From positions 8,928,001 to 8,992,000 of the forward strand of contig OX442314.1 in the NCBI GenBank assembly GCA_949358305.1: 64,000 nucleotides of DNA, written 5' to 3'. Position numbers and translations under genes: made by a program. Source of the DNA: Strigamia acuminata. Lineage: Eukaryota. This document shows positions 18,187 through 41,186 of this stretch, piece by piece (within the stretch, counting starts at the first letter, position 1; the number at the start of each line of letters is the position of its first letter). The notes under the pieces were generated by a model. It did not search any database and was not told where the DNA came from. It worked only from the letters and a program-made list of their open reading frames with translations.

Positions 18187-18759
18187 TTATAGAAGATTGA
18201 CACAACTGGCATCGGTCCTCGATCAATCTGGAAATTCAGTCTGACGGTGAGGTGTGATGCTACTGTTGCTATTCTATTTCCGGTCAAAATACGGGTTTTA
18301 GACTTCTAAACCTGATGTTTAGAAAGTCTATTGAAACGGTTGTGACTCTGCCTGCCCCCACCTCACCCCAGCGCCACCATCGTCCTCGCACGTGTCCATT
18401 GACCCCTCGCCCGTGGTCCACTCGGGAAACCTCTTTGACCCACTTCCCCCTCTCCTTTGTTAAATAAACTTTTGGCATTCAATCTGCGGCGATCCGGGTT
18501 TTTACTTATTAAATTATGTAAATTCAATAAGCAATCGTCGTAGAGATGCCGTACAGGACTTCTACTCTGTGGCCAAATGTTTGTCTAGGGGAATGATTTT
18601 ACACAGAGTAAAGGAAAAATTAGATAGCTTTAATTGTTCAAAATACAAAGGAGGTATTATTCAAAATGTTTGGGGTCGATCTGGCTTCTTCTTCAATATC
18701 TACACTCACAGTTGACCGTTGGCTCCAAGATGGCGTCGATGGCGTCGTGTGAGCGAGGG

Positions 18760-19045
18760 ATTTTAGCGGAGTAAACTCGACGCTAAAATACGTTGCTAAA
18801 ATATTCTAAAATCCTCGCGGAGCAAGCTCGACACGAGAATACGTCTTGCACACAGCGGTTTGATTATTACAGAGCAAGCTCGACGTAACAATCCGTCTTA
18901 ACACAATTCGCTTTGTGGAGTTAAACTCAACACAAAGCCTTCAAACTAACAGAGTAAACTCGATGTTAGTTTCACACAGATTTCTTTGTGGAGCAAGCTC
19001 GACACAAAGAACTACAAATCGACAGAGCAAGCTCAATGTCAATTC
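18760..19045 (-). other. Array of seven bulged RNA hairpins in 3' LTR of element B
   Basis: Repeated core GAGYAARCTC-RA with a different 8-10 bp complementary flank each time. Confidence 0.85.
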
Positions 19046-19799
19046 ACACACAGAAATGGCTTAAATTACGTGTAGTAATTCAAGCTAGAAAGTTGCTATT
19101 CCGTACAGTGGGTACAGACCAGCGATGAAACTCAATTCGTCCAAGAATCACAGATCACACTTTGCAGTTTTGGCAGAAGTTTGACACGGTTGTGAACAGT
19201 TTGGAGGTGGAATCAAGAGTGCGGGAAGAGTGGGCCAAAACCGTTTGGCTCACTTCTAAATCTGCTCAGAAAAGCTGCGCAGATGACGAGTTGCATGAAG
19301 ATCACACACGGCCGCCTTCGGGTCGTGTGCAACAATCGAGCCGGGCACGCGCGAGGGGAAGGGATGCTCCGCCCAGGCACACGCCTAGCAGCATCATCAA
19401 AGCAATGCACGCTGCAGCGCGATTGGTTGACGCTGTTGCTGGGCCAAAACTTGCTGCAAAACACAATATTATTTGGGTAATATTGTGTCTTGTTTTATAT
19501 TTTATTAATGTATGTTTTATTTCAATTTACCTTGAAACAAAACATATAAGCTTGTTGAATATGTTTATAAGACAATTTGGAAATATGGTGCGCACTCAAA
19601 TAGGAATATTTGAGGTCACCACACTTCCCCCCCTTTTAAGAAAGAATCTTATTCTTTTCCAAAAAGAGACAGGTAAGTATAGGAATAAATACACAAGGTT
19701 TCAAAGTAAAATGGAACAGGATATATATTTATTCTTTTTTATTACAATATAAAAAAAATAAAAAAGGAATTATTTTTAATGAACGGGCGTGTTCCCTAA

Positions 19800-22700
19800 T
19801 TATTTCGGCAACATGTCCGTCGAATGATCGTTTGGATCTTTGTGCTCCGTGACGGTGCACAAAGGTCGGCCGGCGTTTGGTCCTGACCGGAAGCCAGGGT
19901 TGATGTGGAGCCACACTTGTTTGATGCGGTCCACACCATCCCTTCGTCCAAAACCCATCTCGAAATACTCCTGCGGGTCTTGAGGCGTAATTCGAGCGAA
20001 CACCAGGCGTTGATGTAGGATCCACGGCTGCTGTTCCTTGATGTGGTTTTCCAGCCACGCGAGGACTCGGTTGCATAAATCCTCGCTGTTCTGGAGAATC
20101 GTTTTCGTCGCGCTCGTTATGTAGCAAAAGGCGTATAAAGAGCGCAAACGTTGATAGGCGGTGAGGTGGGTGGCCATATTCGATCCCCTATCTCTTGGCG
20201 GCGAATCCTTTGGAGGAGGCGGCGGTGGCGGCGACTTCTTGCAGATCGAGAGGGATCTGGATCTGCGCAAAGCCGGGGTGCGCGTCTTTGGTCTGGCACC
20301 GCAGGCCACAGGCACGACGAACTCGCGATCGTCGCTGTCGAGCCACTCCATTGGAGACGAGATGTTGCAACTCGGTGCCTCGGTTGCACGGGAAACACTC
20401 GACGTTGCCGTGATGGCAGCGTGGAGTGGAGCTGCGGATGACGGTGGTGCGCCAGCGGGACGGGCGGTAGCTCGTTCTGCTGCGCGTCGCTGCTTCAGCG
20501 CAGCCCATTCCTGCCGTAGTCGAATGGCGGATCCAGCCGGAGTTTCGCCAGTCGCCTCGGCTTGTTGCGTCAATTCGGCGAGCATCGTTGGAGGATCGGG
20601 GCGAACTGACTCCCAGTCGTCCAGCAAGGCTCGTGGAAGCCCTAACGGCACGGTCCACAATCGAGTGGCGGCCGCCAGAGCAATCTGTGGGTCGGGAAAG
20701 ACTCCTTGGAACAGGATTCGAAGCAGTCCCTCCGACAATTTCCTGTTCATTTTCTGCAGCGTCCGTTGCAGTTGCTTGTCGGACTTGCACGACGCAAGCT
20801 CTCGCGCAAGCCATTGCCATTCCTTCTCACCTTCGCGGATCTGAGCGAGTTGGTATTCGTCCAGATGCGCGAGGTACATCGCTTGGGCTGTCTCGGGAAA
20901 CGATGAGAATCGCCTCCAGAGATCAGCGCACTCCTGGGCGGGAAACGGTTCGTGAGAGACGTATCCCTCAAAACGGATGACCGATGTCACTTGTGGCACG
21001 GGCACCGATGGGTCTGGTCGCATGTCGCTGGTGACTGGACGGCAAGCAAACGGCAAAGAGGTGTTGACGTCTCCTTGACCGGCTTGCAATGCGGCGATGC
21101 GTTGGTCTTCCTTCGCTATCTCGTCCGACCAGTCAATCCGGCCGGAGGAGGAAGCGCCAAGCTGTGAAGCGTTGGACCTTTCTTCACGCGACGAGAGTGA
21201 ACTCCTCGTGGAAGATTGGCGCGATTGTACTCGAGGTCGGCTTCGGGATGTGGGTCTCGACACGGACTTCGAATGTCTTTTTGGCGGCGTCGGCTCGCGT
21301 CGGTGATGTGAGCGATGACGAGCCTTCTGGAGTGGAGGCAACCCTCCAATGGCGCCTTCCCCCGACGACTGTGTTGGGGAGGAGCGACGGCCACTGTAGG
21401 GCGACCTCGAAGATCGTGACCTCGACGTGGAGCGCGGTGGCACCACGTGGATGGTGGAAGCGACCTGTACCCGGGGCTCAGGCTCTGGATACGGGTTTGG
21501 CACGAAATCAGCATGGAAACATCCGCCCATGGCTAGTTGATGCATCTCCGATTGGCATGTCGGCACCCAACGTTTCTTTCCGTCCGTTGTTACACGGAAA
21601 GATTCGTTGTAGAGGCGTACAACCTCGGCTTTGGTTTGGTCCAAGCGTTGGAAAATATCCTCCAAAATCTGTCGACGCTCCCACGCAGGAGCGTTGAAGT
21701 AACGGCGATGGTCTCGCGTTTCTTGATTGATCACTGTGAAGGCGAAGTCGAGCAACACGTTTCGCAGTGTGTGACGGTGACGACCACAACTCCCATTTAA
21801 CAATGGTACCGGGAAGAGATCGCAATAAATAAACAGTGAATACAATACGAGATAAATACAAGACAGTTTATTGTTGGTAAACAATAATATCAAGGCTAAA
21901 TTATACATAGGACTAATGCCGACATTTGGCAAGTTAACTGACTACTAAACTATACAAAGCATAGGCCAATTGGTCCTAAAATAATATCATTACGTGTCTG
22001 GGATAAGGGAGCGGTTTCCCCATCGCTCGACCTGGTTTACAGATGTCATCTAAGCCGGATGGCTGTGTCCTGGAGTCCGATATGGCTTCGCTGGTTTCCT
22101 TGGTTCGCTGTGTAAATTATCGCACGTCGATAAATCGAATGATCTGAGCATTGCGGTTGACTTTGTCTGCACCGCCACAACTTTGGGAGGATATTGGTGT
22201 AAGTAAATGTATTCATTTTACTTATCAATATTCCGCTTATGAATTATATTTAATTCATATCGTTGTGAATTCTTATTTAGATATTTTTGTGGATAAGTTG
22301 TCATCAACTTATCAGTTACATTTGCGTCTTTGATGTAATCGTGATCGTAATTAAGTCTTCTGACTTGGTTAATCAACTTGTCGCCAAGTTAATATTTAGC
22401 TGTTATAAATAAAATGAAGATTAGGCTTCCCGTCGCAACACACAATTGCCGTCGAAAGAAAATATACGCCTTGCAATGCAGAACGGTATCAAGCGTCCCC
22501 TGCGTCGCGACACGGTCGTTCGTCTGGCGATTGACGGTATCACGTACACAGGAGTCGATAGCTCGCGGCTCCGCACAGCAGTATAATCTCTCGCGGTACT
22601 AATAATAGACCGACTACTTTGGCATCGAATACCATGAGAATCAGCTTGCCAAACACTTGGTGCTACTCGTGGTTACTGTAAAACAGACTGCTTTGGCACC

Positions 22701-25700
22701 ATCCGGTGAAGGAACTAATTCTCAACAGCAACGATGCTACTTGCGGTAACGGAATACGTTCATACCGAGAAAGACCACATGGTCCTGTCCGGAGGATACT
22801 GAATTGCACAACGGCGGGTTCTCCTTCGGCGTCGCAACCGTAAACTGTAACATTTATGCAACATAATGATCCCAGCACTTCGACTTCAATTGCCGGCGGT
22901 GGCATGATTCTGTAGAATCATGCAACGGTTCTTTGTGAATAAATCAACAAAGAACCAAAAGGTTTTTTTACGTGAACAACGAATCATATTTCTTAAGTAA
23001 CAATACCAAACAGAAAATAATCAAACAGAGCTGCGGAATGGCCGATTGTTTGGGTTTATATAACCTGACTGGATTTAAGGATTAATCCAGTCATCCAATT
23101 GGAACATGGGTTCCACGAATCCCTCCAATCCCGTATCACCGGAAGTGGATACGGAGGAGCATTTATGCAAATTATGCTAATCCTTGTTACAACCGGAACT
23201 GGATACCCAGGACCGGAAATGGGTTCCACCAATCAGATTGATCGGTTGACCGATTGATCGCTAAACATTCTGTCCCGCAGAAATGGAAGTTACATTGTAT
23301 TTAACAATGTCAGATACTTAATATATATTTATATTTAATATTTAACACAATTTATTCACTTGATTAAATATACGTTTATATTTAATCATGAGGTTTTCAA
23401 GTTCGTATTCGAATTTATCGCTAATTGCGATCGCGCCATCTAGTGGCAATATGGAGCATTGACAAATGCGGGTTTTAGCAGACGAATCTTCGTAATTATG
23501 CCGTGATACTTTAGTATCATGTGGAAATTAGTGTTTATTCTTAATAAACGAACATCTTTGTATTTGAAACATCATAAATGACTTTATTCTAGACATTTAT
23601 CAGTTTTACACAGAATATTGTAAAAATACCATCATATTGGCGCAACAGCGCTTTCTTGATAGAAAATAGGCATTTATAGCCATTGTAAACCGTCATACAT
23701 CCCCCTTAATAACACAACTATATAATATTTTATAGAGTTTTCGTTATTCTCCTAATTAGCATAAATGCTATTTTCGGACTTGATGTATCTTGGAGATACC
23801 GTGACTTCCAATTTCGAATTTGAGTTTACATAAACTAACTTGAATTATCTAAGTTCTGATTTTCTGCCGAAATAATCTTTTCTAATAGCCTAAATTCAAG
23901 TCCAGAATTTATTTCCAAGTCTTCTTTTTGAAGAAACTTTCGTCATACATAAAATCATCATTTGTGTTATCACAAAATATTTATTTCATATGCCTAGTCA
24001 GATGTATCGCTATAAATATACAATAAATAGCTTTTAGATGATAAGAGTTGACAATTTAAGAATCAAAATGTCCCCCTTAATTGTCATGACCGGAGTCACT
24101 TGGTATTCTTTGTACAATTGACTAATTTTAATTTAAACTAGTTGTCTTTTAATACTGTAATATTACTTTTCGAGAATTGTTAATTCTAACTTTTATATTT
24201 TGTCCCCCTTTTCTTTAGAAGAGAGGTCATGATTTTTAGAAGAGGATTTTCTGTTTACACTATAATCGGGGAATCTTGGTGTATCATATCATGTTAATCA
24301 ACATGATTCTTTGCTAAATATTGAGCTCGCATATTTGCAAATTTCCGAGATCTCTCAGCCTGCTGTACTGATTTCTTTCAACGTTTTTTCTTTGGGCAGT
24401 TACACACAGTGTACTCACTTGGCAGTGTAAATGACCGTGACGACCCAACTTTTTGTTTTAGGTCATCTCTGGAAAACCATACATGAATGGGACCCTCATT
24501 GGAAAACCATACGTGGAAAGGACCCATATTTGGAATTGTGAAATCCCGCAACAAACGAGGGGATCTATATTTGACTCTAAGTCGTGGAACTGATGATTGG
24601 AAACCTGGGTTTTCAGTCAGTTTTTGAACATGTTGGTTTGTATTTGAAGTTTCTTCATCACCAGCTGGACTTGGTGACCGAAAACGCTTTTTTGAAGTTC
24701 TTAATTCCTCTCGTTGAGATGAATTATTCTGGATATTGCAGGGTTGCTTTCCAGACGCAAATTGTTGTATCTCCGTCAGATTGACGACTGGGACGGGTTT
24801 TAGTCGTTGGTTACGGTATTGATTTCGAAATACGAATTGTTGCGCTTCGTTTATATTTTTTAAATTCAGCTGAATTTAACTGGTATTGTTTACAATACTG
24901 TTCGAATTGATACCGGATCTCCCGTGGGTTAGTCAAAAAACTTTCTTTTTTAGGTTTAAAATCATTCTCATTATCGTGTTGGTAATACTTTTTCAAGGGA
25001 AAAGTTTGCTTGACTTTTTTTCGATTTGAAATGGGCGTTAGGTAGAATTGTCTTGGCTGGGGACTCTTCTTGGTAGACAAATCATACGTCCGCAAACATG
25101 AGTTTGTGATCGGCGATCGGGCACGTTGTTGTACGTTATTTGACTGCAAATGTTTGTTTGGAGTCCGAATATCTTTCCTTTGCGTTGATATTGGTGGCCC
25201 AAAACTTTTGTTTACGGTTCCCAATTCTTTTGATAGCGGTAGGTTAATCGACAGATTAAGGCTAGCCACATATCGTTGTGCTTCAGCTGGATTAGCATAT
25301 CGAACTGAAATTAGCTGATCTCGATTGTAAACGAGTTTTAATTTGTTCTGAACAACCGACTGGTTAGTTAACGAACTCTCTGGATGAGAATTATTAGGTT
25401 TATAATTCTCTTCCCCCTTATCTACCGAATTAGGTGGTTTAAACTTTTCTAACTTAGATCCCCTACTGGATGTTTGAAACATAGTATGAGAATCTTGATT
25501 CACTAAGTTTCGGCTGTATGTTTGTGGATTCCGTACTGGATCTTGATGTGAAGATTGAGATTGGGTACGATCTCGCCAGTTCCTAGCTTTTACATAGTCT
25601 GAAGCTTCGATTATATTTTTAAACTTGGTTTTATCCAGTCCATGACGATTACAATACAGAGTAAAATGATCGGGAATCTTTTCTGTTTGATCGCCAAGTG

Positions 25701-28700
25701 GTACAGAACTTAAATTTAAGTTTGTCTGCTTATTATTTCCTTTTGGATCGATCATATTCAATGGTTTTTGAGCCATAAAAAAATTCAAAATCTGACGATT
25801 TTAATTCTTTAATTTATAAAGAAGACGAATATAATACACTTTTCAACAAGAAACACTTCTAAACTTTACTTTTGACAAAATAAAATTAAACTTCGCGTTT
25901 GTTTGACACGTGTTAGCTTTTGCAGGTTACACGGCACACAAAATTCGAATCGTGACTGAAATCGGGACGGCGTGGTCAAGATGACTCTGGAACACGTCTT
26001 CTGGTCTGGTCTGGATGCGAATGATCAGTATCTGATCTGGTCCTCCTTTAATAGCAGGGGGCTGGGGATCCCTAGATCTCCCAACTTCTGATTGGCGGAT
26101 GTTAGTGTCGGCCAATGGTATAAAGGACGTTACATCTATTTAGTAGTTCTCTACTAAGTCCGTTCCCTTCGAGATTCAATTTTACCGATAAAATAAAATT
26201 CCTTCGGGAAGACATTCGTAAAATATTGTATTTTTCAAATGAAAATAAAATAAACTTACTTCAATCTTTTTGAACTTTGGGATTTTTACCAATCCAAATA
26301 ATTAAATAACTTTTCTTCAAAAAATATTTTTCTTTTAATTATTCCGTTAGTGTGTGATATCGTTACAACCACAACTTTAATAAAGTTTTCTCAAACTCTC
26401 AATTTTTCTTATTCTTATTCAATTATCGTTCAAATAATCATTCCTTTGTAATTGAAATCTATTTTCGATTCCCAACATTGTGTATTCATTTCCAATAGGA
26501 AGAATAATTTGACCAAGTCTTTACTTTTTCGGGTTTAAATTCCATTTTTCGAGTGTGAAAAAATAAATTTTCACCATCCATCTCCCCCTTTTTTAACAAA
26601 TTTTTTTTTAACAAATAAAAATTCGTTAAAATTCTTTAAATTTGTTTTGCGAGAAAAATTATCTAATTCTCTAATCTTCCAAAAGAAAATATTCGAAATT
26701 TTACTTTAAACGATAAAGTTATTGGTACAAATGTGTACTTGTTTTTCGGGAGAAAACTATTCGACAATCCTTTAGACTTTTGGGTAAAAATTATTCATCA
26801 AATCTTTCTTTTTTGATGACAATTGCTTTGATTTTTCGAAAGAAAATATCTAGCTAAATTCCACTTTTCCTGAGCGGACAATTGTTTTCACAATTAGTTA
26901 TTCCTTTGCGATATTTACGAAGGACGTGTCTTTGATTATTCGTTTTAATAATTTTCGTCCCCCTTATCTCTAATAACGAGATGTTTTTGCAGAGATCTTT
27001 TATCTTTTGAATGAAAGAATATTTAAATCTCAATTGTCGTAAATACCTTCATCTGCTGCAGCATTTCCTCAATTTGAACTTTTCAAATGAAAAGACAAAT
27101 CTGGAGAACTTTCACTGTCAAACTTCTATTCCTATCGCGCCAAAATTCGTAATTCACTGGTTTGGAATTCCGTATAACACGTGACACAATAACAGTATCG
27201 ATGTCACAATTAAGCAGTTTACTACTCGGTCCGCGCGAGGACATGTAAATTACTTTTTTCCGATAAAAATAATTTTTCTTTGAAAAATATTTGAAATTGA
27301 TTTTTCACAACTACTTTTGAATGAAATAAAATGAAGTTATTCCAACTTTTCGTTAATTGCTCACACATAACATTCCCTTTACTGTGGGATTTGCATCGAA
27401 ATTCCATTTTTAAAGAACCTTTCTTTTACTTATCGCAAATAAAACATATTCAATCGTTTTTCTGATTAAACTTTAACACGTAAATTACGAACGAAATATA
27501 TGATGACATTCCATTAACCTTTAGGAAAATTGACTAAATTCTTAATTTTTAGAGAAAAATAATGTATCTAGAATCTTTCCTTTTCCGAATAAAATCTATG
27601 TTCAAAATAGAAGATAAATCTTGTGCAATTCTTAGTTTTTTCGAATGGAAAAATACAACTTTTCATCAGCGGTGATTTATTTGATTTTTCCGAAAGAAAA
27701 ATAATTACTTTGAAACTTATTTTCTTCGTTTAAATCAGCTATCTGATTTTAAAGCTTCAATCCAATCAAAAAATATTCGCTCCGTAAATATTTCATGTGG
27801 CAAAGTTCATAGCCACAAATGGATTTGTTATTCCGGTTTTAAGAAATCATGTGGGAAAATGTCCGATTAGATTACTAAAAATATTCGTTGTTTTTCAAAC
27901 AGCTAAATTTCATTTTAGAAATTCTCAAAATTTGGGAGACCCAAATATCGTTGGAAACTTAAAACACTGTTAAATTTCTGAAAGGAAAGATTGAATGAAA
28001 TCCTTTTACTTTTCCGAGGGAAAGCGTTTATCGTGATTCGTAACTTTCAATGTAAAAAATACTATTCTACGTGGTCGGCAACTTCATTCGCCGCCATTTT
28101 ATATTTTCTTAATTTCCATTGTCCCGAAGGAAAAAATGTACTTTTTGTGAAAATAGTTAATTCCTTCAAATAAAGGTAATATTCATTTCGATTTGCAAAT
28201 CTTTTCTGCGAAATGGAGTGTGTTGTTTTTCTCCAACAACTAAATTATCTTTGGTACCGATGGCAGTGGAAAAATTAGTTCGCGACACTTAAATAAATCT
28301 CTACGAACCTTCTGTAACATTTCTCCGCTGTCTTTTATCTGTTGTCCGCCATAATTTCCAAGCATTCGTTCGCACCTTGCGTTGAAGGTTTGAGTAGCTT
28401 CCCTGCTGCGTTTGATACGGAGATCGACGCGTATTGCTATGGCGCGTGGTCGCTGGCTATCGGTGTCGACGTACAGTTACAAGAAACTTAATTTCTTGTA
28501 AATATTTCCAAATAGTTGCGGTGTTTTCTTCGTTTTAACTTTTCAGGTGGAAAGATAAATTCGTAAGAAGTCCGCCTTCTAAACTTGTATGTTTTTAGCT
28601 TTTCGAAATAAAACAAACTTCGAAAAAAAATATCTGTATTCTTATTTCACTCGAAACTTTTTTGATTTCTTATTTAAAATACTTCGTATTCCTTAAATTG

Positions 28701-31700
28701 TCGAACGAAAATAGTAAAGAGAGTTCACTAAACGTTTCCATTTCGTCAGTTTAACTTTTCACATGAAAATATAAACTGAAAATCTATTTGTCTGTTTTAA
28801 CTAAAATTTTTTAGTTAATATCGGATTCAAGATTCGCTTTTGCAATTCGATCGAATTAATTTGCAACCTATTTCAGTGATCGTGTGATAGGTCTATAACT
28901 TCCGAAATTCCTAGTTAAAGGACAGTTTTGGTGTTTCTCAAGAAAATAAACATGGTTTGAAACTGGTCTGTTTTTTAACTAAATCTTTTAGTTAAATATT
29001 TATCTCAAAATTCACTTTTACAATTCTATCGAATTTAATTGCAACCTAATCTCGGTGGGACCTCCACGTGTGAGATTAGGTGGTAGTCTTTGAAATCCCT
29101 AAAATCTTCAAACGAAAATAATGAAGGAAAATCTACTACGTATTTCTATTTCATCAGTTTAACTTCTTCACATGGAAATATAAACTGAAAATTTAATCTG
29201 TCTATTTTTAACTTAAATCTTTTAGTTAAATATTTATCTCCAATATTCACTGTTGCAATTCAATCGAATTTAATTGCAACCTAATCTCGGTGGGACCTCC
29301 ACGTGTGACGGTGACGACCACAACTCCCATTTAACAATGGTACCGGGAAGAGATCGCAATAAATAAACAGTGAATACAATACGAGATAAATACAAGACAG
29401 TTTATTGTTGGTAAACAATAATATCAAGGCTAAATTATACATAGGACTAATGCCGACATTTGGCAAGTTAACTGACTACTAAACTATACAAAGCATAGGC
29501 CAATTGGTCCTAAAATAATATCATTACGTGTCTGGGATAAGGGAGCGGTTTCCCCATCGCTCGACCTGGTTTACAGATGTCATCTAAGCCGGATGGCTGT
29601 GTCCTGGAGTCCGATATGGCTTCGCTGGTTTCCTTGGTTCGCTGTGTAAATTATCGCACGTCGATAAATCGAATGATCTGAGCATTGCGGTTGACTTTGT
29701 CTGCACCGCCACAACTTTGGGAGGATATTGGTGTAAGTAAATGTATTCATTTTACTTATCAATATTCCGCTTATGAATTATATTTAATTCATATCGTTGT
29801 GAATTCTTATTTAGATATTTTTGTGGATAAGTTGTCATCAACTTATCAGTTACATTTGCGTCTTTGATGTAATCGTGATCGTAATTAAGTCTTCTGACTT
29901 GGTTAATCAACTTGTCGCCAAGTTAATATTTAGCTGTTATAAATAAAATGAAGATTAGGCTTCCCGTCGCAACACACAATTGCCGTCGAAAGAAAATATA
30001 CGCCTTGCAATGCAGAACGGTATCAAGCGTCCCCTGCGTCGCGACACGGTCGTTCGTCTGGCGATTGACGGTATCACGTACACAGGAGTCGATAGCTCGC
30101 GGCTCCGCACAGCAGTATAATCTCTCGCGGTACTAATAATAGACCGACTACTTTGGCATCGAATACCATGAGAATCAGCTTGCCAAACACTTGGTGCTAC
30201 TCGTGGTTACTGTAAAACAGACTGCTTTGGCACCATCCGGTGAAGGAACTAATTCTCAACAGCAACGATGCTACTTGCGGTAACGGAATACGTTCATACC
30301 GAGAAAGACCACATGGTCCTGTCCGGAGGATACTGAATTGCACAACGGCGGGTTCTCCTTCGGCGTCGCAACCGTAAACTGTAACATTTATGCAACATAA
30401 TGATCCCAGCACTTCGACTTCAATTGCCGGCGGTGGCATGATTCTGTAGAATCATGCAACGGTTCTTTGTGAATAAATCAACAAAGAACCAAAAGGTTTT
30501 TTTACGTGAACAACGAATCATATTTCTTAAGTAACAATACCAAACAGAAAATAATCAAACAGAGCTGCGGAATGGCCGATTGTTTGGGTTTATATAACCT
30601 GACTGGATTTAAGGATTAATCCAGTCATCCAATTGGAACATGGGTTCCACGAATCCCTCCAATCCCGTATCACCGGAAGTGGATACGGAGGAGCATTTAT
30701 GCAAATTATGCTAATCCTTGTTACAACCGGAACTGGATACCCAGGACCGGAAATGGGTTCCACCAATCAGATTGATCGGTTGACCGATTGATCGCTAAAC
30801 ATTCTGTCCCGCAGAAATGGAAGTTACATTGTATTTAACAATGTCAGATACTTAATATATATTTATATTTAATATTTAACACAATTTATTCACTTGATTA
30901 AATATACGTTTATATTTAATCATGAGGTTTTCAAGTTCGTATTCGAATTTATCGCTAATTGCGATCGCGCCATCTAGTGGCAATATGGAGCATTGACAAA
31001 TGCGGGTTTTAGCAGACGAATCTTCGTAATTATGCCGTGATACTTTAGTATCATGTGGAAATTAGTGTTTATTCTTAATAAACGAACATCTTTGTATTTG
31101 AAACATCATAAATGACTTTATTCTAGACATTTATCAGTTTTACACAGAATATTGTAAAAATACCATCATATTGGCGCAACAGCGCTTTCTTGATAGAAAA
31201 TAGGCATTTATAGCCATTGTAAACCGTCATAAGTGGTCCGAAGGTATCGCGCTTCATTGCCCACTCGAGGGCGTCGCGATGACCGAATCCATCGATTAAA
31301 TAGGCGATCCGAAACTTCGTTCCCCATCGCTTGTTTAAGGCCTTGGAGAATTTGTGTCGGGCCGCCCAAAACGTCAGTCGTCCTTTCGACTTTATGATTT
31401 CTGGCGGCAATGCGTGTCGCCAGACACCAGGAGCGGTTGGAACATCGGGATGCAGTTCGAGATGTGTTTCCCGAAGCTGGATGATCTGTAAAATATTCGA
31501 AGAAATAATTAAAATCCATTTTTTCGTGTAAAATAATTATTTCCGAATTTTCAGTGAATAAAATCACGGGTGAGATTTCATTCGACAGTTTAGATTCATT
31601 AAATTTTTCAAAATATTTGAAAAATCGTGAAAAACGTTGTTTCCGACGGCTATGTTTCAATGTTGGAGCGTTACCGTAGCAACGCCTCAAAAACGAGACA

Positions 31701-32100
31701 CAGCGCCATCTGATGATAATAATGGCGGCGCCTTCTTGCGAAGGCGTTACCAACGAACTTTTCGCTTTTTCTGAGTGAAAATGCACTTTTAATTACTTTT
31801 CATGACTGAAAGGTAATTTTATTTTAAATTATTTACCCGGTCGTGTCTCTGTGCACGAGTTTCGCCGTTTGGATCGGCGAATAGGCCTCCTCGAAGTTGT
31901 GGTCGGGGCGGCGTGACTGGCAAACGAGCAGCAGCGTCGGCCAGAGCGGCTTGAGCTTCGGCGGACGCTTCGGCGGACTCTTCGGTGACATCCACGGATG
32001 TATTCGAAGTGTTTGCGGAACCAAGCAGCGTCGAATTTGTTTCTAATTCGAGGCTGTTGGCGCCGGCTTCGCTTTCTTCTTTCGGTTCCTCTCCTTCCAT
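19800..32100 (-). CDS. Element B spliced accessory ORF3 (~827 aa; 32100-31837, 31485-31232, 21765-19800), disrupted by LARD C
   Basis: Phase-0 GT-AG intron 31836-31486. Removing LARD C plus one TSD joins ..RDTFGP-L-RNVLLDF.. in frame. Arg/Ser- and Pro-rich; no TM or signal peptide. Confidence 0.75.
21770..31231 (-). mobile_element. LARD-like non-autonomous LTR element C (no gag/pol)
   Basis: 1928-bp LTRs 21770-23697 and 29304-31231 with no difference spotted; TSD AGTG; PBS TGGAGGTCCCACCGAGAT (tRNA-Gln); PPT TAAGGGGGATG; termini TA..CA in element sense. Confidence 0.92.
24600..25776 (-). CDS. LARD C internal ORF of unknown function (frameshifted near 24855)
   Basis: ~321-aa ORF from MAQKP..; repeated motif F..YC....L....FKNI.EA..YV; upstream CCAAT/TATA/Inr-like elements. 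Confidence 0.5.
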
Positions 32101-32308
32101 TTGAACGACTAATCCAAATGGAAAGAAAAACGAAAATTAATTTATTAGTTTTTCTTTGGAAAATTCCAAAGAAAAAACTACTTACAATTGAAGATTCGGG
32201 AGAATTTATCCAGTTGTTTCGCTTTTGGTTTTTCGGAGATGAGCACTTAGCACACGTGTGAGATCGAAGTGAACTCAGACGCGAAGTGATCAGTTCAAAT
32301 ACCGGAAG

Positions 32309-35300
32309 TTACGTTTGGGTAACGTCGCTGTTAGTGACGTCATCCAATCTTATTGTTTGATTGGTTTGAGTATGGCTTGAGGAATTGCTCCTTACGTCAT
32401 ACGGCTGATCCCTGGATCTCGAGGTTAGCGAGGGGAGAAGACACATGTTGTTTTTTCCTCTCGGTTTACGAGTCCGAAGATTATATCTCTTTGTCGGCGA
32501 GGGATTTATTGTATTTAAATCGCCGTCTTCATTGTCATCGGAGACTGAGTCAGATGAGTCTTTTATTTCAGATGTTTTTTGTTTCTTTTCTAAAAACACC
32601 TTTTTATTTAATTTTTTAGCAATTTCAAGCTTTTTGAAACTGTCACGAAGTTCAACGTCGTTATTCACGAGGTCTGACTCCATTTGTGGTTTGGATGAAT
32701 TATCGACAGGTATTTTCTTTAATTCATCGTCATCTAACGTATTAATTATATTTTCAGTCTTTTGACCGACTTCTTCGCCTTCTAACCATACTTCCTGATC
32801 GAAACTCGGGAAATACGGAGTTAATTCAGACGAATGGACAGCTGGAAATATTTCGTTATTTTCTAGCTTTCTCAATTCTACGGATCCTCCCTGTAATACT
32901 TTGGTTATTACATATGGTCCTGTTCTTTTATCAGCGATGCCAGCTGCAATGCCGCGGGCAGCGCTCGACAAAACATGAGAATCTCTCCAAACTAAATCGT
33001 TTAATTTAAAATTGGAGAACTTCTCACCTTCTTTTTTAAGATTTACTCGTCTACGCAAATCTAACACGTGTGACATCATGTGCTGATATGTTTCGGCGAT
33101 AACGGCTTCTAATTTTTGCACGTATAAATGTGGGTTTTTTGGATCTACGACCAAAATTCCTTCAGGTATTCTTGGATCCCAAGGTACTCTGAGTTCGCGA
33201 AAAAAGTTAAGAAATGCGGGAGAGAAGTCTCTTCCTCTCGTCACCGTAGTTCTCAAACTAAATGCAAATTCACGCAAATATTCGTCCCATTTGGAATGAA
33301 CAGATGAATAAATTGCAACCAAATATTTGATGTCACGGTTAACCCTTTCAACCGGGTTAGCTTGTGGGTGATACGTTGAAGTTGGTGTTGGAACCATCTT
33401 GAACTTTTCACAAAATTTTTTAAAGACTTGGGCACGAAATTGCGGGCCGTTGTCAGAAATAATTTTACGAGGGAATCCCATGCTCATGGAAAGGTGATAA
33501 ATGCAATTTGCCACTTTTCCAGCAGTGGGGTTACACATTGGATATAATTCTGGCCAATGAGTTGCCACGTCAAGTATGACTAAAATATGTGTGTTGTTTT
33601 TGCGCGTCCGAGGTTTCGGGCCGGTCAAATCAACACTTAGGCAGTCAAATGGGCTGTAAGGACCCATTTGCGCTGCTTCAATTTGTCCTTTCGTTCGAGG
33701 CTTGCAAGCTTGACAACGCTCGCAATGTCGAATGAATCTCGTAATGTCCGATTTCATGCCTTTCCAGGTATAAATTCGGCGTGCTCGATAAAGAGTCCTT
33801 GCAATTCCTGGGTGGCCAGAAAGTGGGTGGCCATGCATCAGCCAAATAATTTTATACTTCAATGTCTGAGGTACAAAAACTTTGAGTGCTCTCCCATCCT
33901 CCCCCAATTCATCAGACATTGTGGGATGAAATTGCATTAATAAGTCGTCTTCAATTAAGAAGGTGGTTGCGTGTTTTCTATATTGTTTCCTCTGGAGTCG
34001 CGTTGTGACGTCAGGCGGAAATTGATTACAATTTAAAAAATTACGCATCAATTGGCACACTTTATCTTCTTTCTGTGCCTTAATTATGTCTTCCCTTGTG
34101 GGAGGTTCACAATCAAGACGTTCTACAATTTTGGCGACAAATGCTTTTATTAAAACATTTGACGAAGGAACTTGGAATTTCCTTGAAATTTGCGCTCTTA
34201 TGACGTCATCTGATTCCTCAGAGGGGTCATAGATTTTAGTCCAATAGTTGACGAATTCATGATCTTCCTTTTCCTCCAGCGTGGAGACAGGAAGCTCATG
34301 AAACTTTCCCATTTTCCAATTTCGTTGAGGTGATGGACAGTAAGATAATAATTCGTCATTATCTCCATCATCTTCAGGATTTTCCGGTTTGTCAATCGGT
34401 GATCTGGATAAAGCATCCGCTAAAACATTTAGTGGACCTTTAATGTATTGTATTTCGAAAGAATAGCGCATCAGCTCCATTTGCCAACGCGCTAACCTTC
34501 CGGCAGGTTCGTCTAACTGCATCAACCATTTTAGTGCTTGATGGTCAGTCCTAACTATGAATGTGGTAAATTCCAAATAATGTCGAAATTTACGTAATGC
34601 CCAGATTACCGCTAGGCACTCCAATTCTGTGGCGCTGTAATTTATCTCAGCAGGTTGCAAACTTCTGCTGGCATAAACACAAGGCACTTCGATATTTTGA
34701 TCATCGATTTCCCTCATTTGCATAAGCGCGGCGCCTAGTCCTTTTCTGCTGGCGTCGGTATGCACAATAAATGGTTCTGTCAAATCAGGCATGGCCATTG
34801 TTTCTGCATTTGTTAAAGCATCTTTTATTTGATCAAAAGCTTCTTGATGAATTTCTGACCAAATAAATTCCACATCCTTTTTGAGTAAAGGACGTAGAGG
34901 TTCCGTCATGACTGCTAGATTCTTGAGTAATCGGTGAAAAAAGTTCACCATTCCCAAAAATCTCTGCAACTCTTTCAAATTTGAAGGAGCTGGCATTTCT
35001 TTAATGGCGGCGACTTTTTTAGGGTCGACACTAACTCCGTGAACACTTAACTTGTAGCCAAGAAAAGTTAATTCTTTTCTGCCAAATTTTGATTTTTCTG
35101 GATGAACATGAAGATTTGCATTTTCAAGTTTACTCAGAATTTCTTCTAGATGAATCATGTGTTCTTCAAAATTTTTAGATATAATAATTATATCATCGAG
35201 GTATGCCCATGCGAATTTTCGATAGGCGTCCCCCAAAATCTTCTCTATCAACTTTTGAAAAGTTGACGGCGCATTTACGAGGCCAAAGGGCATGACTCGA

Positions 35301-36790
35301 AATTGTAGTCGACCCAAAGGGCTCCAAAACGCAGTTTTAGCACGGTCGTTCGGATGAACCTCTATTTGCCAATAGCCTTTTGACAAATCTATTGTTGTGA
35401 CCCATTCAAACCTTCCGAGTTCTCGCAAGATTTCCTCAATGCTCGGCATTTGAGGAGGGTCGTATAATGTATGTGCATTGAGTGGTCTAAAATCAATGCA
35501 GAGTCTCGGATCACAATCCGGACGCATCACTAGAACTATTCGCATTCCATAGTCTCCAGTGGCTTGTTCAACGTATCCATTATCCAACATGTCTTGACAG
35601 ATTTGACGGATAATTTCACGTTTTTGTGGATTTACACTTTTAAACGGAACTCTAATAGGAACTTTAGTGTCCAGTTTAATTTCATGCCTAACGAGGTGTG
35701 TTCTACCTGGTCGGCGTGATAAAATCTTTTCATGTTTCTTTAATACTTTTTCAAGCATTAAATTATTTTCCATTGACAAATTAGCGTCGCTAACAAGTCT
35801 TTGTACTATATTTTCTTCATTTGCAACTTTAGCTTGACACGCAGTGGCAGAGCCAGCTTTCATGTGATTTGCTTTAATAAAGTCGCGTCTCATGATTTCT
35901 TCGGGTGGATCAAGGAACTCTTGATAACGATCAAGAATCGCTTGAGGAACAAAAGGTAAATCTTCTTTCAAAGACTTGACAAAATTCCAAGACATGGTCT
36001 TAGGATTTGGTTGAATATTGAGTCGATTCATGAAATCACATCCTAATAAAATAATAGGATATTTATTTCTTAAAATTATGAATGGATGACTTAACATCCC
36101 GTGTGTCCACGCAAAAGAAAGTAGGAGAGTTCCTTCAGGGACTACATCTTCAGAAGCAGTCGTAACTCTCACATCCGGTCCAATTGGTCGAATTTCATCT
36201 TCCAGTTTCAGCGAAATTACTACGGAGTAGGCCATGAAGCTTCGATTAGCTCCAGAGTCTAACATCCCTGTTATCATACCGTTTGCCGTCTGCAATCGAA
36301 TCGTCGGCAAATCATTGCTGTTTGGTATGTCCGCGTACTTGCACTTAAAACGTCGCGGTGGCTTAATTTCTATCGGCGGATCTAATGGTAATTCGTCCAA
36401 TAAATCATTAGTGACTAGCGTTGCAGCCATTAATTTTTCAATACATTCATCAAGACCAGGTAAATCAATTTTATCTGACCTTTCAATGATTTCAGGTGTT
36501 GGCCTAGTTTTTTCATCAAGTAAAGTAACAGCATCTTTTATTTTAGATTCCCAATCAATTTTTATTTGTTGAACTTTTTCTTTAAAAAATTCTTCAGTGA
36601 TGTTCTCATTTTGCAGCACAAGCCTTAAATTGGAAACATCAATTTTTGGAAATATTAAATTATTTTCTAATTCTAATTTAATCTGAGTATTTAAAAAATC
36701 ATCTAAAATTTGAGATGGTGTTAGTTCATTTTCCGAGGCGGTAGGCGTCGCATCCACTAGACCGTCGGGATGCGCGCTTACAAGTTTTTT
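32309..36790 (-). CDS. pol: Element B Pol (PR-RT-RNase H-IN), translated by -1 frameshift from gag
   Basis: LDSGA protease; RT LCIDFRPLN, IDLSKGYWQ, MPFGL, YLDD; RNase H TDAS/ELE/TDH/DALS; IN HHCC and D-D-E; uninterrupted ORF. Confidence 0.95.
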   Translation of the reverse strand, partial: KKLVSAHPDGLVDATPTASENELTPSQILDDFLNTQIKLELENNLIFPKIDVSNLRLVLQNENITEEFFKEKVQQIKIDWESKIKDAVTLLDEKTRPTPEIIERSDKIDLPGLDECIEKLMAATLVTNDLLDELPLDPPIEIKPPRRFKCKYADIPNSNDLPTIRLQTANGMITGMLDSGANRSFMAYSVVISLKLEDEIRPIGPDVRVTTASEDVVPEGTLLLSFAWTHGMLSHPFIILRNKYPIILLGCDFMNRLNIQPNPKTMSWNFVKSLKEDLPFVPQAILDRYQEFLDPPEEIMRRDFIKANHMKAGSATACQAKVANEENIVQRLVSDANLSMENNLMLEKVLKKHEKILSRRPGRTHLVRHEIKLDTKVPIRVPFKSVNPQKREIIRQICQDMLDNGYVEQATGDYGMRIVLVMRPDCDPRLCIDFRPLNAHTLYDPPQMPSIEEILRELGRFEWVTTIDLSKGYWQIEVHPNDRAKTAFWSPLGRLQFRVMPFGLVNAPSTFQKLIEKILGDAYRKFAWAYLDDIIIISKNFEEHMIHLEEILSKLENANLHVHPEKSKFGRKELTFLGYKLSVHGVSVDPKKVAAIKEMPAPSNLKELQRFLGMVNFFHRLLKNLAVMTEPLRPLLKKDVEFIWSEIHQEAFDQIKDALTNAETMAMPDLTEPFIVHTDASRKGLGAALMQMREIDDQNIEVPCVYASRSLQPAEINYSATELECLAVIWALRKFRHYLEFTTFIVRTDHQALKWLMQLDEPAGRLARWQMELMRYSFEIQYIKGPLNVLADALSRSPIDKPENPEDDGDNDELLSYCPSPQRNWKMGKFHELPVSTLEEKEDHEFVNYWTKIYDPSEESDDVIRAQISRKFQVPSSNVLIKAFVAKIVERLDCEPPTREDIIKAQKEDKVCQLMRNFLNCNQFPPDVTTRLQRKQYRKHATTFLIEDDLLMQFHPTMSDELGEDGRALKVFVPQTLKYKIIWLMHGHPLSGHPGIARTLYRARRIYTWKGMKSDITRFIRHCERCQACKPRTKGQIEAAQMGPYSPFDCLSVDLTGPKPRTRKNNTHILVILDVATHWPELYPMCNPTAGKVANCIYHLSMSMGFPRKIISDNGPQFRAQVFKKFCEKFKMVPTPTSTYHPQANPVERVNRDIKYLVAIYSSVHSKWDEYLREFAFSLRTTVTRGRDFSPAFLNFFRELRVPWDPRIPEGILVVDPKNPHLYVQKLEAVIAETYQHMMSHVLDLRRRVNLKKEGEKFSNFKLNDLVWRDSHVLSSAARGIAAGIADKRTGPYVITKVLQGGSVELRKLENNEIFPAVHSSELTPYFPSFDQEVWLEGEEVGQKTENIINTLDDDELKKIPVDNSSKPQMESDLVNNDVELRDSFKKLEIAKKLNKKVFLEKKQKTSEIKDSSDSVSDDNEDGDLNTINPSPTKRYNLRTRKPRGKNNMCLLPSLTSRSRDQPYDVRSNSSSHTQTNQTIRLDDVTNSDVTQT
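36745..36790 (-). other. -1 programmed ribosomal frameshift signal
   Basis: A_AAA_AAC (36790-36784) just before the gag TAA, followed by CGCATCC..GGATGCG stem; the -1 frame opens into pol. Confidence 0.8.
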
Positions 36791-39672: not shown

Positions 39673-40039
39673 TTTGTCAAATTGAAAAAGAACAATGGAA
39701 ATAAAGGATTTTTTCGCAAAAATCGGGTTTTAACAATCAAAACTATCCCGGCCGGGCCCCCAAGTGCGGCGATCCGGGTTTTTACTTATTAAATTATGTA
39801 AATTCAATAAGCAATCGTCGTAGAGATGCCGTACAGGACTTCTACTCTGTGGCCAAATGTTTGTCTAGGGGAATGATTTTACACAGAGTAAAGGAAAAAT
39901 TAGATAGCTTTAATTGTTCAAAATACAAAGGAGGTATTATTCAAAATGTTTGGGGTCGATCTGGCTTCTTCTTCAATATCTACACTCACAGTTGACCGTT
40001 GGCTCCAAGATGGCGTCGATGGCGTCGTGTGAGCGCGGG

Positions 40040-40325
40040 ATTTTAGCGGAGTAAACTCGACGCTAAAATACGTTGCTAAAATATTCTAAAATCCTCGCGG
40101 AGCAAGCTCGACACGAGAATACGTCTTGCACACAGCGGTTTGATTATTACGGAGCAAGCTCGACGTAACAATCCGTCTTAACACAATTCGCTTTGTGGAG
40201 TTAAACTCAACACAAAGCCTTCAAACTAACAGAGTAAACTCGATGTTAGTTTCACACAGATTTCTTTGTGGAGCAAGCTCGACACAAAGAACTACAAATC
40301 GACAGAGCAAGCTCAATGTCAATTC
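40040..40325 (-). other. Array of seven bulged RNA hairpins in 5' LTR of element B
   Basis: Same array as 18760-19045. Confidence 0.85.
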
Positions 40326-41186
40326 ACACACAGAAATGGCTTAAATTACGTGTAGTAATTCAAGCTAGAAAGTTGCTATTCCGTACAGTGGGTACAGACC
40401 AGCGATGAAACTCAATTCGTCCAAGAATCACAGATCACACTTTGCAGTTTTGGCAGAAGTTTGACACGGTTGTGAACAGTTTGGAGGTGGAATCAAGAGT
40501 GCGGGAAGAGTGGGCCAAAACCGTTTGGCTCACTTCTAAATCTGCTCAGAAAAGCTGCGCAGATGACGAGTTGCATGAAGATCACACACGGCCGCCTTCG
40601 GGTCGTGTGCAACAATCGAGCCGGGCACGCGCGAGGGGAAGGGATGCTCCGCCCAGGCACACGCCTAGCAGCATCATCAAAGCAATGCACGCTGCAGCGC
40701 GATTGGTTGACGCTGTTGCTGGGCCAAAACTTGCTGCAAAACACAATATTATTTGGGTAATATTGTGTCTTGTTTTATATTTTATTAATGTATGTTTTAT
40801 TTCAATTTACCTTGAAACAAAACATATAAGCTTGTTGAATATGTTTATAAGACAATTTGGAAATATGGTGCGCACTCAAATAGGAATATTTGAGGTCACC
40901 ACAAATCGAACGCCGTCAAACCAAACGCTTCGTGTCGTTCTTTTGTCTCACATGGCGCAGTCGACGCTACTAACCTAAAGGGAATCGCCGTTAATTCGCA
41001 CACATCAACCGATGGCTCGCACACTTCGCACACAACGCACACCACGCACGAATCGCACAAATCGCACAAATCGCTCAAATCGCTCAATCGCTCAATCGCT
41101 CAAATCGCTCAATCGCTCAAATCTCACAAATCGCACAACAAACTCGCACAAACGAATTCGCACCCGCACCCGCTTTACCGACGAAG

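Follow-up and report, generated by a model that had tools for sequence, protein, structure and literature searches.

An intron-containing, non-Env gene under purifying selection in the env slot of a Ty3/gypsy retrotransposon of Strigamia acuminata

Introduction

The RNA that LTR retrotransposons have to export still contains splice sites. Sense introns placed in LTR vectors vanish on transposition (PMC2923131), so that keeping such introns takes some mechanism. A 64,000-nt stretch of Strigamia acuminata DNA (contig OX442314.1, positions 8,928,001 to 8,992,000; hereafter, the window, to which all coordinates refer) contains an intron-bearing gene, ORF3, flanked by pol and the 3′ LTR of a gypsy element, for which an earlier note had proposed a Tat/Rev/Tas-like regulatory role. 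Is ORF3 a gene that the element uses, and what would it do for an element that is copied through RNA?

Element B and its insertion

ORF3 resides in element B (40903-18485, minus strand, as are all features described below), a young Ty3/gypsy LTR retrotransposon with intact gag and pol, for which paired LTRs, a primer-binding site, a polypurine tract and a target duplication were found. The 5′ LTR (39765..40903; 1139 nt, TG..CA) differs from the 3′ LTR (18485..19623) at two positions, and the 4-bp target duplication GATT flanks the element on both sides. The primer-binding site (approximately 39762-39745) follows the 5′ LTR. The gag gene (36778..39672) encodes 964 aa with a Retrotrans_gag domain and a CCHC knuckle, and the pol frame (32309..36829), with the domain order PR-RT-RH-IN, is −1 relative to gag; we infer −1 frameshifting between the two, with an AAAAAAC heptamer located at 36790-36784 in their overlap. 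The AT-rich 3′ region (19624..19799) carries the polypurine tract and AATAAA motifs at 19743 and 19733, which may serve as poly(A) signals. The top Pol matches are 32-45% identical, those with names come from arthropods, and B belongs to a deep-branching gypsy lineage, clustering apart from the control loci that bear a Baculo_F-type Env.

In the window, ORF3 is broken by insertion C (21769..31231), a separate LTR element with LTRs at 31231-29303 and 23697-21769 (1929 nt, 100% identical) and a 4-bp target duplication. The insertion, previously described as a LARD, is real, but it is not purely non-coding: it contains ORFs of 329 and 165 codons (25800-24811 and 24875-24378). Other copies of B were surveyed in public reads from two runs of a single study, apparently of DNA (X1 and X2), and in both runs short junction contigs span the C site without C.

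ORF3 is an intron-containing gene of the element

With C and the coding intron taken out, ORF3 comprises 88 + 84 + 655 = 827 codons. Exon 1 (31837..32100) consists of 88 stop-free codons that start with the ATG at 32100 and encode an acidic segment; exon 2 is split into a portion before C (31232..31485; 84 codons at 31485-31234, plus the target site) and a portion after C (19800..21767; 655 codons at 21767-19803, stop at 19802-19800). The gene coordinates given in the earlier note, the phase-matched 351-nt intron and the 739-aa exon without C were all reproduced. Shuffling the 655-codon exon 1000 times gave no frame longer than 288 aa, so the ORF exceeds chance. Thus, ORF3 is a real, non-Env, intron-containing gene of the element, located in the env slot, flanked by pol and the 3′ LTR.

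The composition of ORF3 sets it apart from the rest of the element. The exons have a GC content of 54-58%, compared with 23% and 33% in the introns, and GC at four-fold sites is 0.58 in ORF3 vs 0.29 in gag and 0.35 in pol. The latter contrast suggests that ORF3 was captured from elsewhere, together with its intron or introns, and later put to use by the element. Upstream of ORF3, a motif scan outlines a candidate internal promoter and 5′ leader (32186..32345), with TGACGTCA at 32342, which we take to be a CRE-like motif, and with ACTTCCGG at 32309 and a motif at 32258, presumably an ETS-like site and an E-box, respectively.

Splicing signals and intron-less copies

The coding intron (intron 2; 31486..31836) is 351 nt long, GT..AG-bounded, in phase 0 and structured. 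One X1 contig lacks exactly these 351 nt (joint 31485-31837; shorter side, 27 nt), and one X2 contig has a loose end at 31837 that matches the loss of intron 2. Because the intron is precisely missing in these rare contigs, it is spliceable, which bears out the phase-matched intron proposed earlier. The sequencing depth over intron 2 equals that over the exons in X1 and X2, and the bulk of the copies keep the intron. A further GT..AG-ended joint in X2 (31967-32275) was discarded: its sites are weak, and at that position a contig of X1 diverges from the window.

The picture is less complete for the candidate 5′-UTR intron (32109..32185; 77 nt). The GTAAGT at 32185 and the AG ending at 32109 were confirmed, accompanied by a pyrimidine tract, which occurs in two length variants among copies, and a CTAAT branch-like site within a hairpin (fold z −3.5), but the corresponding joint was not among the four joints found in contigs of the public runs. 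A donor at 39020 in gag is in phase with the acceptor at 32109, so that a Gag-ORF3 fusion would be frame-compatible and is possible. Other donors that might lead to ORF3 lie at 38949, also in gag, and at 39989.

Both the branch-like site of this intron and one AATAAA lie within stems. Intron 2 was also considered as an RRE-like element and set aside: its fold is strong (z −6.0), yet it is not exceptional for B, as windows of 150 nt with z < −4 are numerous in both gag and pol.

Selection among copies of B

The differences between copies, taken from the best-supported 40 of 49 and best-supported 40 of 204 variants, show a strong excess of silent changes: 22 of the 32 listed coding differences in ORF3 are silent, against an expectation of approximately 29% (p 4e-6), which corresponds to a rough omega of 0.19. 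By part, the silent changes amount to 6 of 12 listed differences in exon 1, which has no listed indels, 12 of 13 in the portion of exon 2 before C (p 2e-6) and 4 of 7 in the 655-codon portion, where diverged contig pieces align without gaps. All eight listed indels fall outside the exons (p 0.014), four of them in intron 2. From the silent excess and the avoidance of exons by indels, we conclude that ORF3 is under purifying selection among the element copies; the possibility that the ORF is not conserved, which the earlier note had named as grounds for abandoning its proposal, did not materialize.

These data bear directly on the idea that ORF3 is a captured fragment of a host gene, either a neutral passenger or kept for the benefit of the host only. 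The host-like GC contrast between introns and exons, the codon composition unlike that of gag and pol, and the disruption of the present copy by C although B looks young would all fit such an origin. The silent-site excess and indel avoidance among copies argue against it and largely refute its neutral form, and no cellular homolog was found in the databases searched, the host's own genes being outside that search. We therefore consider this explanation very unlikely; the searches likewise returned no clear match to a captured host gene, another outcome that had been named as damaging to the proposal.

The ORF3 protein

The predicted protein is soluble. The peak 19-residue hydropathy of the three ORF3 pieces is 0.52, 0.10 and 1.09, which indicates that there is no transmembrane helix. 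The N-terminus is acidic (net −10), and the last piece contains Arg/Ser-rich, low-complexity basic stretches (residues 101-200 and 495-530), as well as Pro runs and three predicted helical regions; NLS-like clusters are also present in the protein. The Arg/Ser/His tracts noted previously are thus present, but Arg/Ser richness is not peculiar to ORF3 because Gag has a similar density of RS dipeptides (23 RS/SR in 655 aa of ORF3 vs 18 in 964 aa of Gag). A single weak match to the NES pattern was found, and the 11 Cys residues are scattered, with no Tat-like cluster.

A Pfam scan of the three pieces gave nothing at E 0.1, including the RRM, unlike SR splicing proteins; NCBIfam yielded one low-complexity match (E 0.15). 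For the 655-aa piece, no homologs were detected by word search (7994 candidates), by HMMER over 1.84 billion representatives, among PDB sequences, or in IMG/VR (5 candidates) and JGI metagenomes (40 candidates). A feature-based search of the ESM Atlas also found none, with a recognition of 1606, a value lower than most known families reach, and a weak search of longer proteins with the 84-aa piece found none among 31 candidates. No match to the ORF3 pieces better than E 0.08 was obtained in 86 distant pol-related loci, 34 of which have at least 1500 nt after the integrase; this absence says little because the Pol proteins of these loci are only 26-47% identical.

The fold model of the whole 655-aa piece has a pLDDT of 41.5, and Foldseek returned no match at E 0.001. 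The middle domain was modelled somewhat better (pLDDT 63, pTM 0.49), with no viral match; its best VIA hits (Z 8.6 and 8.4) are to designed helical proteins, and the arrangement is a common one. The database searches by sequence and by fold, the latter with these low-confidence models, revealed no link to CERV, Rev or RNA-binding families.

Could ORF3 be a divergent Env or a cell-to-cell transmission protein? ORF3 does occupy the env slot and follows a splice acceptor, as such a protein would, but the hydropathy maximum of 1.09, the acidic N-terminus, the lack of any Baculo_F match (2 of 13 control ORFs do match) and the grouping of B apart from the Env-bearing control loci make this extremely unlikely. 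With no transmembrane helix, signal-like segment or Pfam match, the earlier assessment of ORF3 as non-Env stands.

A hairpin array in the LTRs

The 3′ LTR of B carries seven bulged hairpins (19048-18757), an array that is repeated in the 5′ LTR and begins 576 nt into the LTR. The lower stems differ, and the upper stem and the bulge are constant; the bulge is 2 nt long and U-first, followed by G-C and A-U pairs. The sense strand folds better in 7/7 hairpins. The bulges share the features named for Tat-TAR recognition (PMC10970485), and Rfam gave no match for the candidate RNA elements of B, the array and intron 2, to which a Tat/Rev-type ORF3 protein might bind.

The array invites the interpretation that ORF3 is a Tat- or Tas-like activator, made first from an internal promoter, that binds the hairpins or LTR DNA and switches on full-length transcription. 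The acidic N-terminus, the Arg-rich tracts and the promoter-like motifs behind pol are in line with it, as are the seven TAR-type bulges (PMC10970485) and the internal promoter that drives a third ORF in the Oikopleura Tor elements (PMC4402516). Against this, the array lies 576 nt into the LTR and lacks an Rfam match; ORF3 has no Tat-like cysteine cluster; Gag with its CCHC knuckle would be an equally good ligand, the hairpins then being a packaging signal; and a 3′ ORF of the snakehead retrovirus that had been proposed to be a Tat on such grounds proved otherwise (PMC12193657). Such an activator role is, in our estimate, rather unlikely.

Possible functions of ORF3

We tentatively favour the reading that ORF3 is a functional spliced accessory gene, the soluble product of which acts in the nucleus, letting full-length B RNA escape splicing and be exported and packaged with its introns. 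A subgenomic ORF3 mRNA would start at an internal promoter located behind pol, or else use a donor farther upstream (in the LTR or in gag), and would be spliced and translated into the ORF3 protein. The basic Arg/Ser tracts would bring this protein to the nucleus, onto RNA or splicing factors, and its helical domains could provide oligomers or host contacts. Accidental splicing of genomic RNA would give rise to the rare intron-less copies of B.

The premise that sense introns should be lost unless unspliced RNA is specifically preserved agrees with their loss from LTR vectors, but facultative sense introns are kept by BARE1 (PMC3735527) and plant Copia elements (PMC5580714), so a trans-acting factor is not required. 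ORF3 could possibly be an accessory protein with a different function, most likely that of an adaptor in counter-silencing or in manipulating the host, with the introns kept by cis structure (hairpins that cover the branch site and run through intron 2) or a separate unspliced RNA pool and no role for ORF3 in keeping them. Purifying selection shows function, not its kind, and helical domains with short linear motifs are compatible with an adaptor; the hairpins over the intron-1 branch-like site and AATAAA might act in cis, and BARE1 has distinct RNA pools (PMC3735527). Furthermore, non-Env third ORFs are diverse (PMC5408684), and captured host domains have been reported in LTR accessory proteins (PMC13547354). 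However, ORF3 resembles no known silencing factor in the database searches, and the basic Arg/Ser tracts are explained no better by an adaptor than by an RNA regulator.

An extended version of the nuclear-regulator reading would make B a complex retrotransposon, with a captured self-contained gene (its own promoter, two introns and its own poly(A) signal) encoding a protein that binds the seven TAR-like hairpins and licenses both the synthesis and the export of unspliced RNA, independently of retroviruses and Cer1. We regard this full combination as improbable. If the function is otherwise, ORF3 is still an 827-codon orphan under purifying selection.

Comparison with known systems

ORF3 resembles the retroviral rev, rex and tat genes in being a spliced accessory gene with Arg-rich tracts in an element that contains structured RNA. 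Tat has a Cys-rich domain, Rev has a Leu-rich export signal, and Rev/Rex and Tat are several times smaller than ORF3. ORF3, in contrast, has no sequence similarity to these proteins, no Cys-rich Tat domain and no clear export signal, and B is not a retrovirus. Foamy viruses contain genes driven by an internal promoter, as may be the case for ORF3.

Among non-retroviral elements, the ORF3s of the bdelloid Vesta and Juno elements and other extra ORFs of gypsy elements are likewise family-specific, probably captured and located downstream of pol (PMC5408684). They differ in encoding DEDDy, GDSL, coiled-coil or transmembrane proteins, whereas ORF3 of B bears an intron, has no Pfam match to DEDDy or GDSL (SGNH) catalytic domains or to any other family, and is predicted, with low-confidence models, to fold into helical domains; the main text of the bdelloid paper never uses the word “intron” (PMC5408684). 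In the Oikopleura Tor3b/4b elements, the promoter of the third gene may likewise lie behind pol or at its end, but that gene codes for a membrane Env, and the products of 5′ RACE carried no evidence of splicing (PMC4402516); the putative promoter of B is a motif cluster. BARE1, plant Copia and Ogre elements, like B, have genomic copies that retain a spliceosomal intron on the sense strand, but their introns tune Gag against Pol, whereas that of B lies within a separate accessory gene (PMC3735527; PMC5580714). In the literature searched, which left out most subscription papers and Repbase, neither a stand-alone non-Env ORF3 that contains an intron nor a TAR-like array was reported for an LTR retrotransposon.

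The closest parallel is CERV of the C. elegans element Cer1, a spliced, nuclear, non-Env product of the env slot that is required for genomic RNA export (PMC10309623) and, in the literature searched, the only documented element-encoded export helper of LTR retrotransposons. Both are large non-Env ORFs flanked by pol and the 3′ LTR, the splicing of ORF3 being deduced from intron-less contigs; both lack homology beyond their own lineage and combine structured domains with flexible linkers; and in both elements the genomic RNA retains usable splice sites (PMC10309623). CERV is a 517-aa protein encoded by five exons, with an N-terminus common with Gag and domains termed H, M (with a Cys loop) and G (G-protein-like), whereas ORF3 is 827 codons long, has its own ATG, carries one or more small AT-rich introns in the env slot, and shows Arg/Ser tracts and all-helical predicted domains; a nuclear role has been demonstrated for CERV and is only proposed for ORF3 (PMC10309623). 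This precedent makes the Rev-like idea more plausible and less novel. With its own small intron, retained by nearly all copies and precisely absent from a few, a second, unrelated env-slot protein under selection offers a natural way to examine how introns survive in an element that is copied through RNA, and whether Rev- or Tat-like control arose repeatedly outside retroviruses. On the best reading of these comparisons, an element-encoded nuclear RNA regulator is already known as a kind from Cer1 CERV, and ORF3 would be an unrelated second one.

Results

ORF3, an 827-codon third gene lying after pol and before the 3' LTR of the Ty3/gypsy retrotransposon B, is real and functional; its mechanism is inferred. 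Its intron-containing frame, proposed in the earlier note, comprises exon 1 (32100-31837, 88 codons), an 84-codon piece (31485-31234) and a last piece of 655 codons (21767-19803), all on the minus strand; 1000 shuffles of the last piece gave a longest frame of 288 aa. GC content is 54-58% in the exons versus 23% and 33% in the introns. Unspliced read-through from exon 1 meets a stop after five codons of the phase 0, 351-nt coding intron (intron 2, 31836-31486), whose donor, 31836, is among the three best U1 matches of the 573 GT sites in B. The four-fold-site GC of 0.58, versus 0.29 in gag and 0.35 in pol, suggests that ORF3 was captured from elsewhere. The 77-nt 5'-UTR intron 1 (32185-32109) is a candidate, with no joint among the four found for 31232-32480 in two public runs (X1 and X2), and its acceptor could also pair with donors in the LTR (39989) or, in phase, in gag (39020).

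B itself (40903-18485, minus) is flanked by a 4-bp target duplication; its 1139-nt LTRs show two differences, and both primer site and polypurine tract are present. It encodes a 964-aa Gag and a pol frame of 1506 codons, ordered PR-RT-RH-IN by domain search. The best database matches to its Pol show 32-45% identity. In a quick, midpoint-rooted tree of 49 rows chosen from 120 proteins and 86 loci, Pol forms a long branch within an eight-row group of otherwise unnamed members (SH-aLRT 99), away from the named elements of insects and also from two loci with a Baculo_F-matching third ORF. A small LTR element on the plus strand (41809-18341, in two parts, 41809-40904 and 18484-18341) carries B within one of its LTRs; this small element has a ~190-nt LTR, a 5-bp target duplication and a ~670-nt interior whose plus-strand frames span 194 and 250 codons. 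The window also holds Gypsy element A (16432-7879, minus; LTR identity 99.6%, RT domain absent), adjoined by a Tc1/mariner-type transposase ORF (7424-6003, minus).

The window's ORF3 copy is broken by LTR element C (31231-21769, minus; 1929-nt LTRs, 100% identical), which is the latest insertion because it sits inside the nested B. A C-free joint occurs in contigs of both runs (X1, 2193 and 806; X2, 374). The earlier note's "LARD C" holds as a separate LTR insertion but not as a pure LARD, since ORFs of 329 and 165 codons (25800-24378, minus; without Pfam match) are present. A 1-nt length difference at 24856, across much of the run depth, suggests a single ORF in other copies, and C, which itself looks high-copy, is thus a coding non-autonomous element. 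The first two letters (TG) of its 3' LTR are missing from its 5' LTR (31231, minus), and its primer-site region is repeated ~237 nt downstream (29301-29040, minus). A CTCF-like motif lies on the minus strand in intron 2 (31711) and in the C LTRs (30975/23441).

The ORF3 stretch is present in X1 and X2, which come from one study and are not registered as RNA. Depth is level across exons, introns and C, and nine one-off joints shared by the two runs have values grouped near 274 in X1 and near 90 in X2. Thus, the runs resemble genomic DNA, and B looks like an element of the order of one hundred copies, an inferred estimate, contig depth not being a copy number. A single X1 contig omits 31486-31836 to the letter (depth 506, roughly 2 units, with 27 nt on its shorter side). 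In X2, one contig passes from 31837 into 78 letters, of which the 30 displayed have 4 mismatches to the next-exon start versus 20 to the intron end. Thus, a few copies lack intron 2 precisely, the outcome expected if spliced RNA had been reverse-transcribed, and the coding intron is spliceable, as had been proposed. Summed depth across intron 2 (44,000-105,000 in X1) equals that across the exons.

Among the best-supported differences (best 40 of 49 and best 40 of 204), each classed singly against the window's codon, 22/32 in ORF3 exons are silent versus ~29% expected (p 4e-6, rough omega 0.19). The fractions are 6/12 in exon 1, 12/13 in the 84-codon piece and 4/7 in the last piece, and the excess is significant on its own only in the middle piece. 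The indels listed for 31232-32480 fall in introns or spacer (8/8, none in exons), the 12 listed of 73 indels from the other scan all lie within C, and diverged exon pieces (81-287 nt) have 0 gaps versus 3-7 in intron and C pieces. The silent excess and the avoidance of exon indels indicate that ORF3 has been kept up in the element lineage, in line with the expected conservation among copies; we regard a neutral passenger as very improbable.

The ORF3 protein has an acidic N-terminal start, two basic Arg/Ser/His/Pro tracts and three predicted helical regions. It lacks a hydrophobic segment, in agreement with the non-Env assignment, and Env is hardly credible. Sequence, profile, metagenome and structure searches returned no homolog, family or clear fold. 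The last piece contains 23 RS/SR dipeptides per 655 aa; the Arg/Ser richness should not be over-read, because Gag holds 18 per 964 aa. A candidate Cys/His metal site (residues 71-85) lies early in the last piece (21767-19803), and two short Trp-acidic motifs (residues 211-216 and 473-480) flank the middle helical domain.

Fold z-scores are -6.0 for intron 2 and -3.5 for intron 1, the latter with a branch-like site within a stem. Neither stands out as a response element, since many gag and pol windows fold comparably (z below -4). Each B LTR carries seven bulged hairpins (19048-18757; 40328-40037, minus) whose lower stems vary yet pair, with a constant U-first 2-nt bulge, an identical upper stem and a GAG-loop-CUC top. 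The sense strand folds better in 7/7, two by a narrow margin (array z -2.85), and Rfam gave no match to the array. The geometry agrees with Tat recognition of TAR as described in PMC10970485. The array could be TAR-like or a Gag packaging signal, Gag being an equally good candidate ligand. A Tat/Tas-like activator is an unlikely role for ORF3: internal promoters have been demonstrated in Tor elements (PMC4402516), but PMC12193657 is a cautionary case. At the beginning of the B LTR (19623-19450; 40903-40750, minus), 150 nt fold very strongly (z about -7) and contain two AATAAA, one inside a stem; this stretch may mark a U3/R that is short and a U5 that is long.

Discussion

Our leading, tentative reading is that ORF3 acts as a nuclear regulator at the RNA level: a spliced subgenomic mRNA would yield the protein, which would then promote nuclear exit of full-length RNA without splicing. 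Its best support is the analogy with Cer1 of C. elegans, where the corresponding slot holds a non-Env ORF that is accessed via splicing and whose product, CERV, is nuclear and required for genomic RNA export (PMC10309623). A counter-silencing or other adaptor, with introns retained in cis, is a somewhat less likely alternative, compatible with the separate RNA pools used by BARE1 (PMC3735527). Regulation at the RNA level or Tat/Tas-like activation, taken together, is slightly more likely than not.

Non-Env third ORFs are frequent (PMC5408684), and intron retention is already documented in LTR elements (PMC3735527, PMC5580714). Five of the distant pol-related gypsy loci form one clade (SH-aLRT 99) with third ORFs of 286-607 aa (L013:6755-8137, L015:6004-7818, L020:3753-5573, L030:6209-7195, L046:7821-8678) whose first feature is a zinc-finger-like Cys/His motif; most have no hydrophobic segment, and they show no Pfam match and are unrelated to ORF3. 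Our literature search found no orphan ORF3 that stands alone, has a small intron of its own and is under selection, with this intron retained in most copies and missing precisely from a few. For a Rev-like factor, precedent exists in Cer1 (PMC10309623); CERV and ORF3 would at best work similarly, and we do not claim that ORF3 belongs with CERV.
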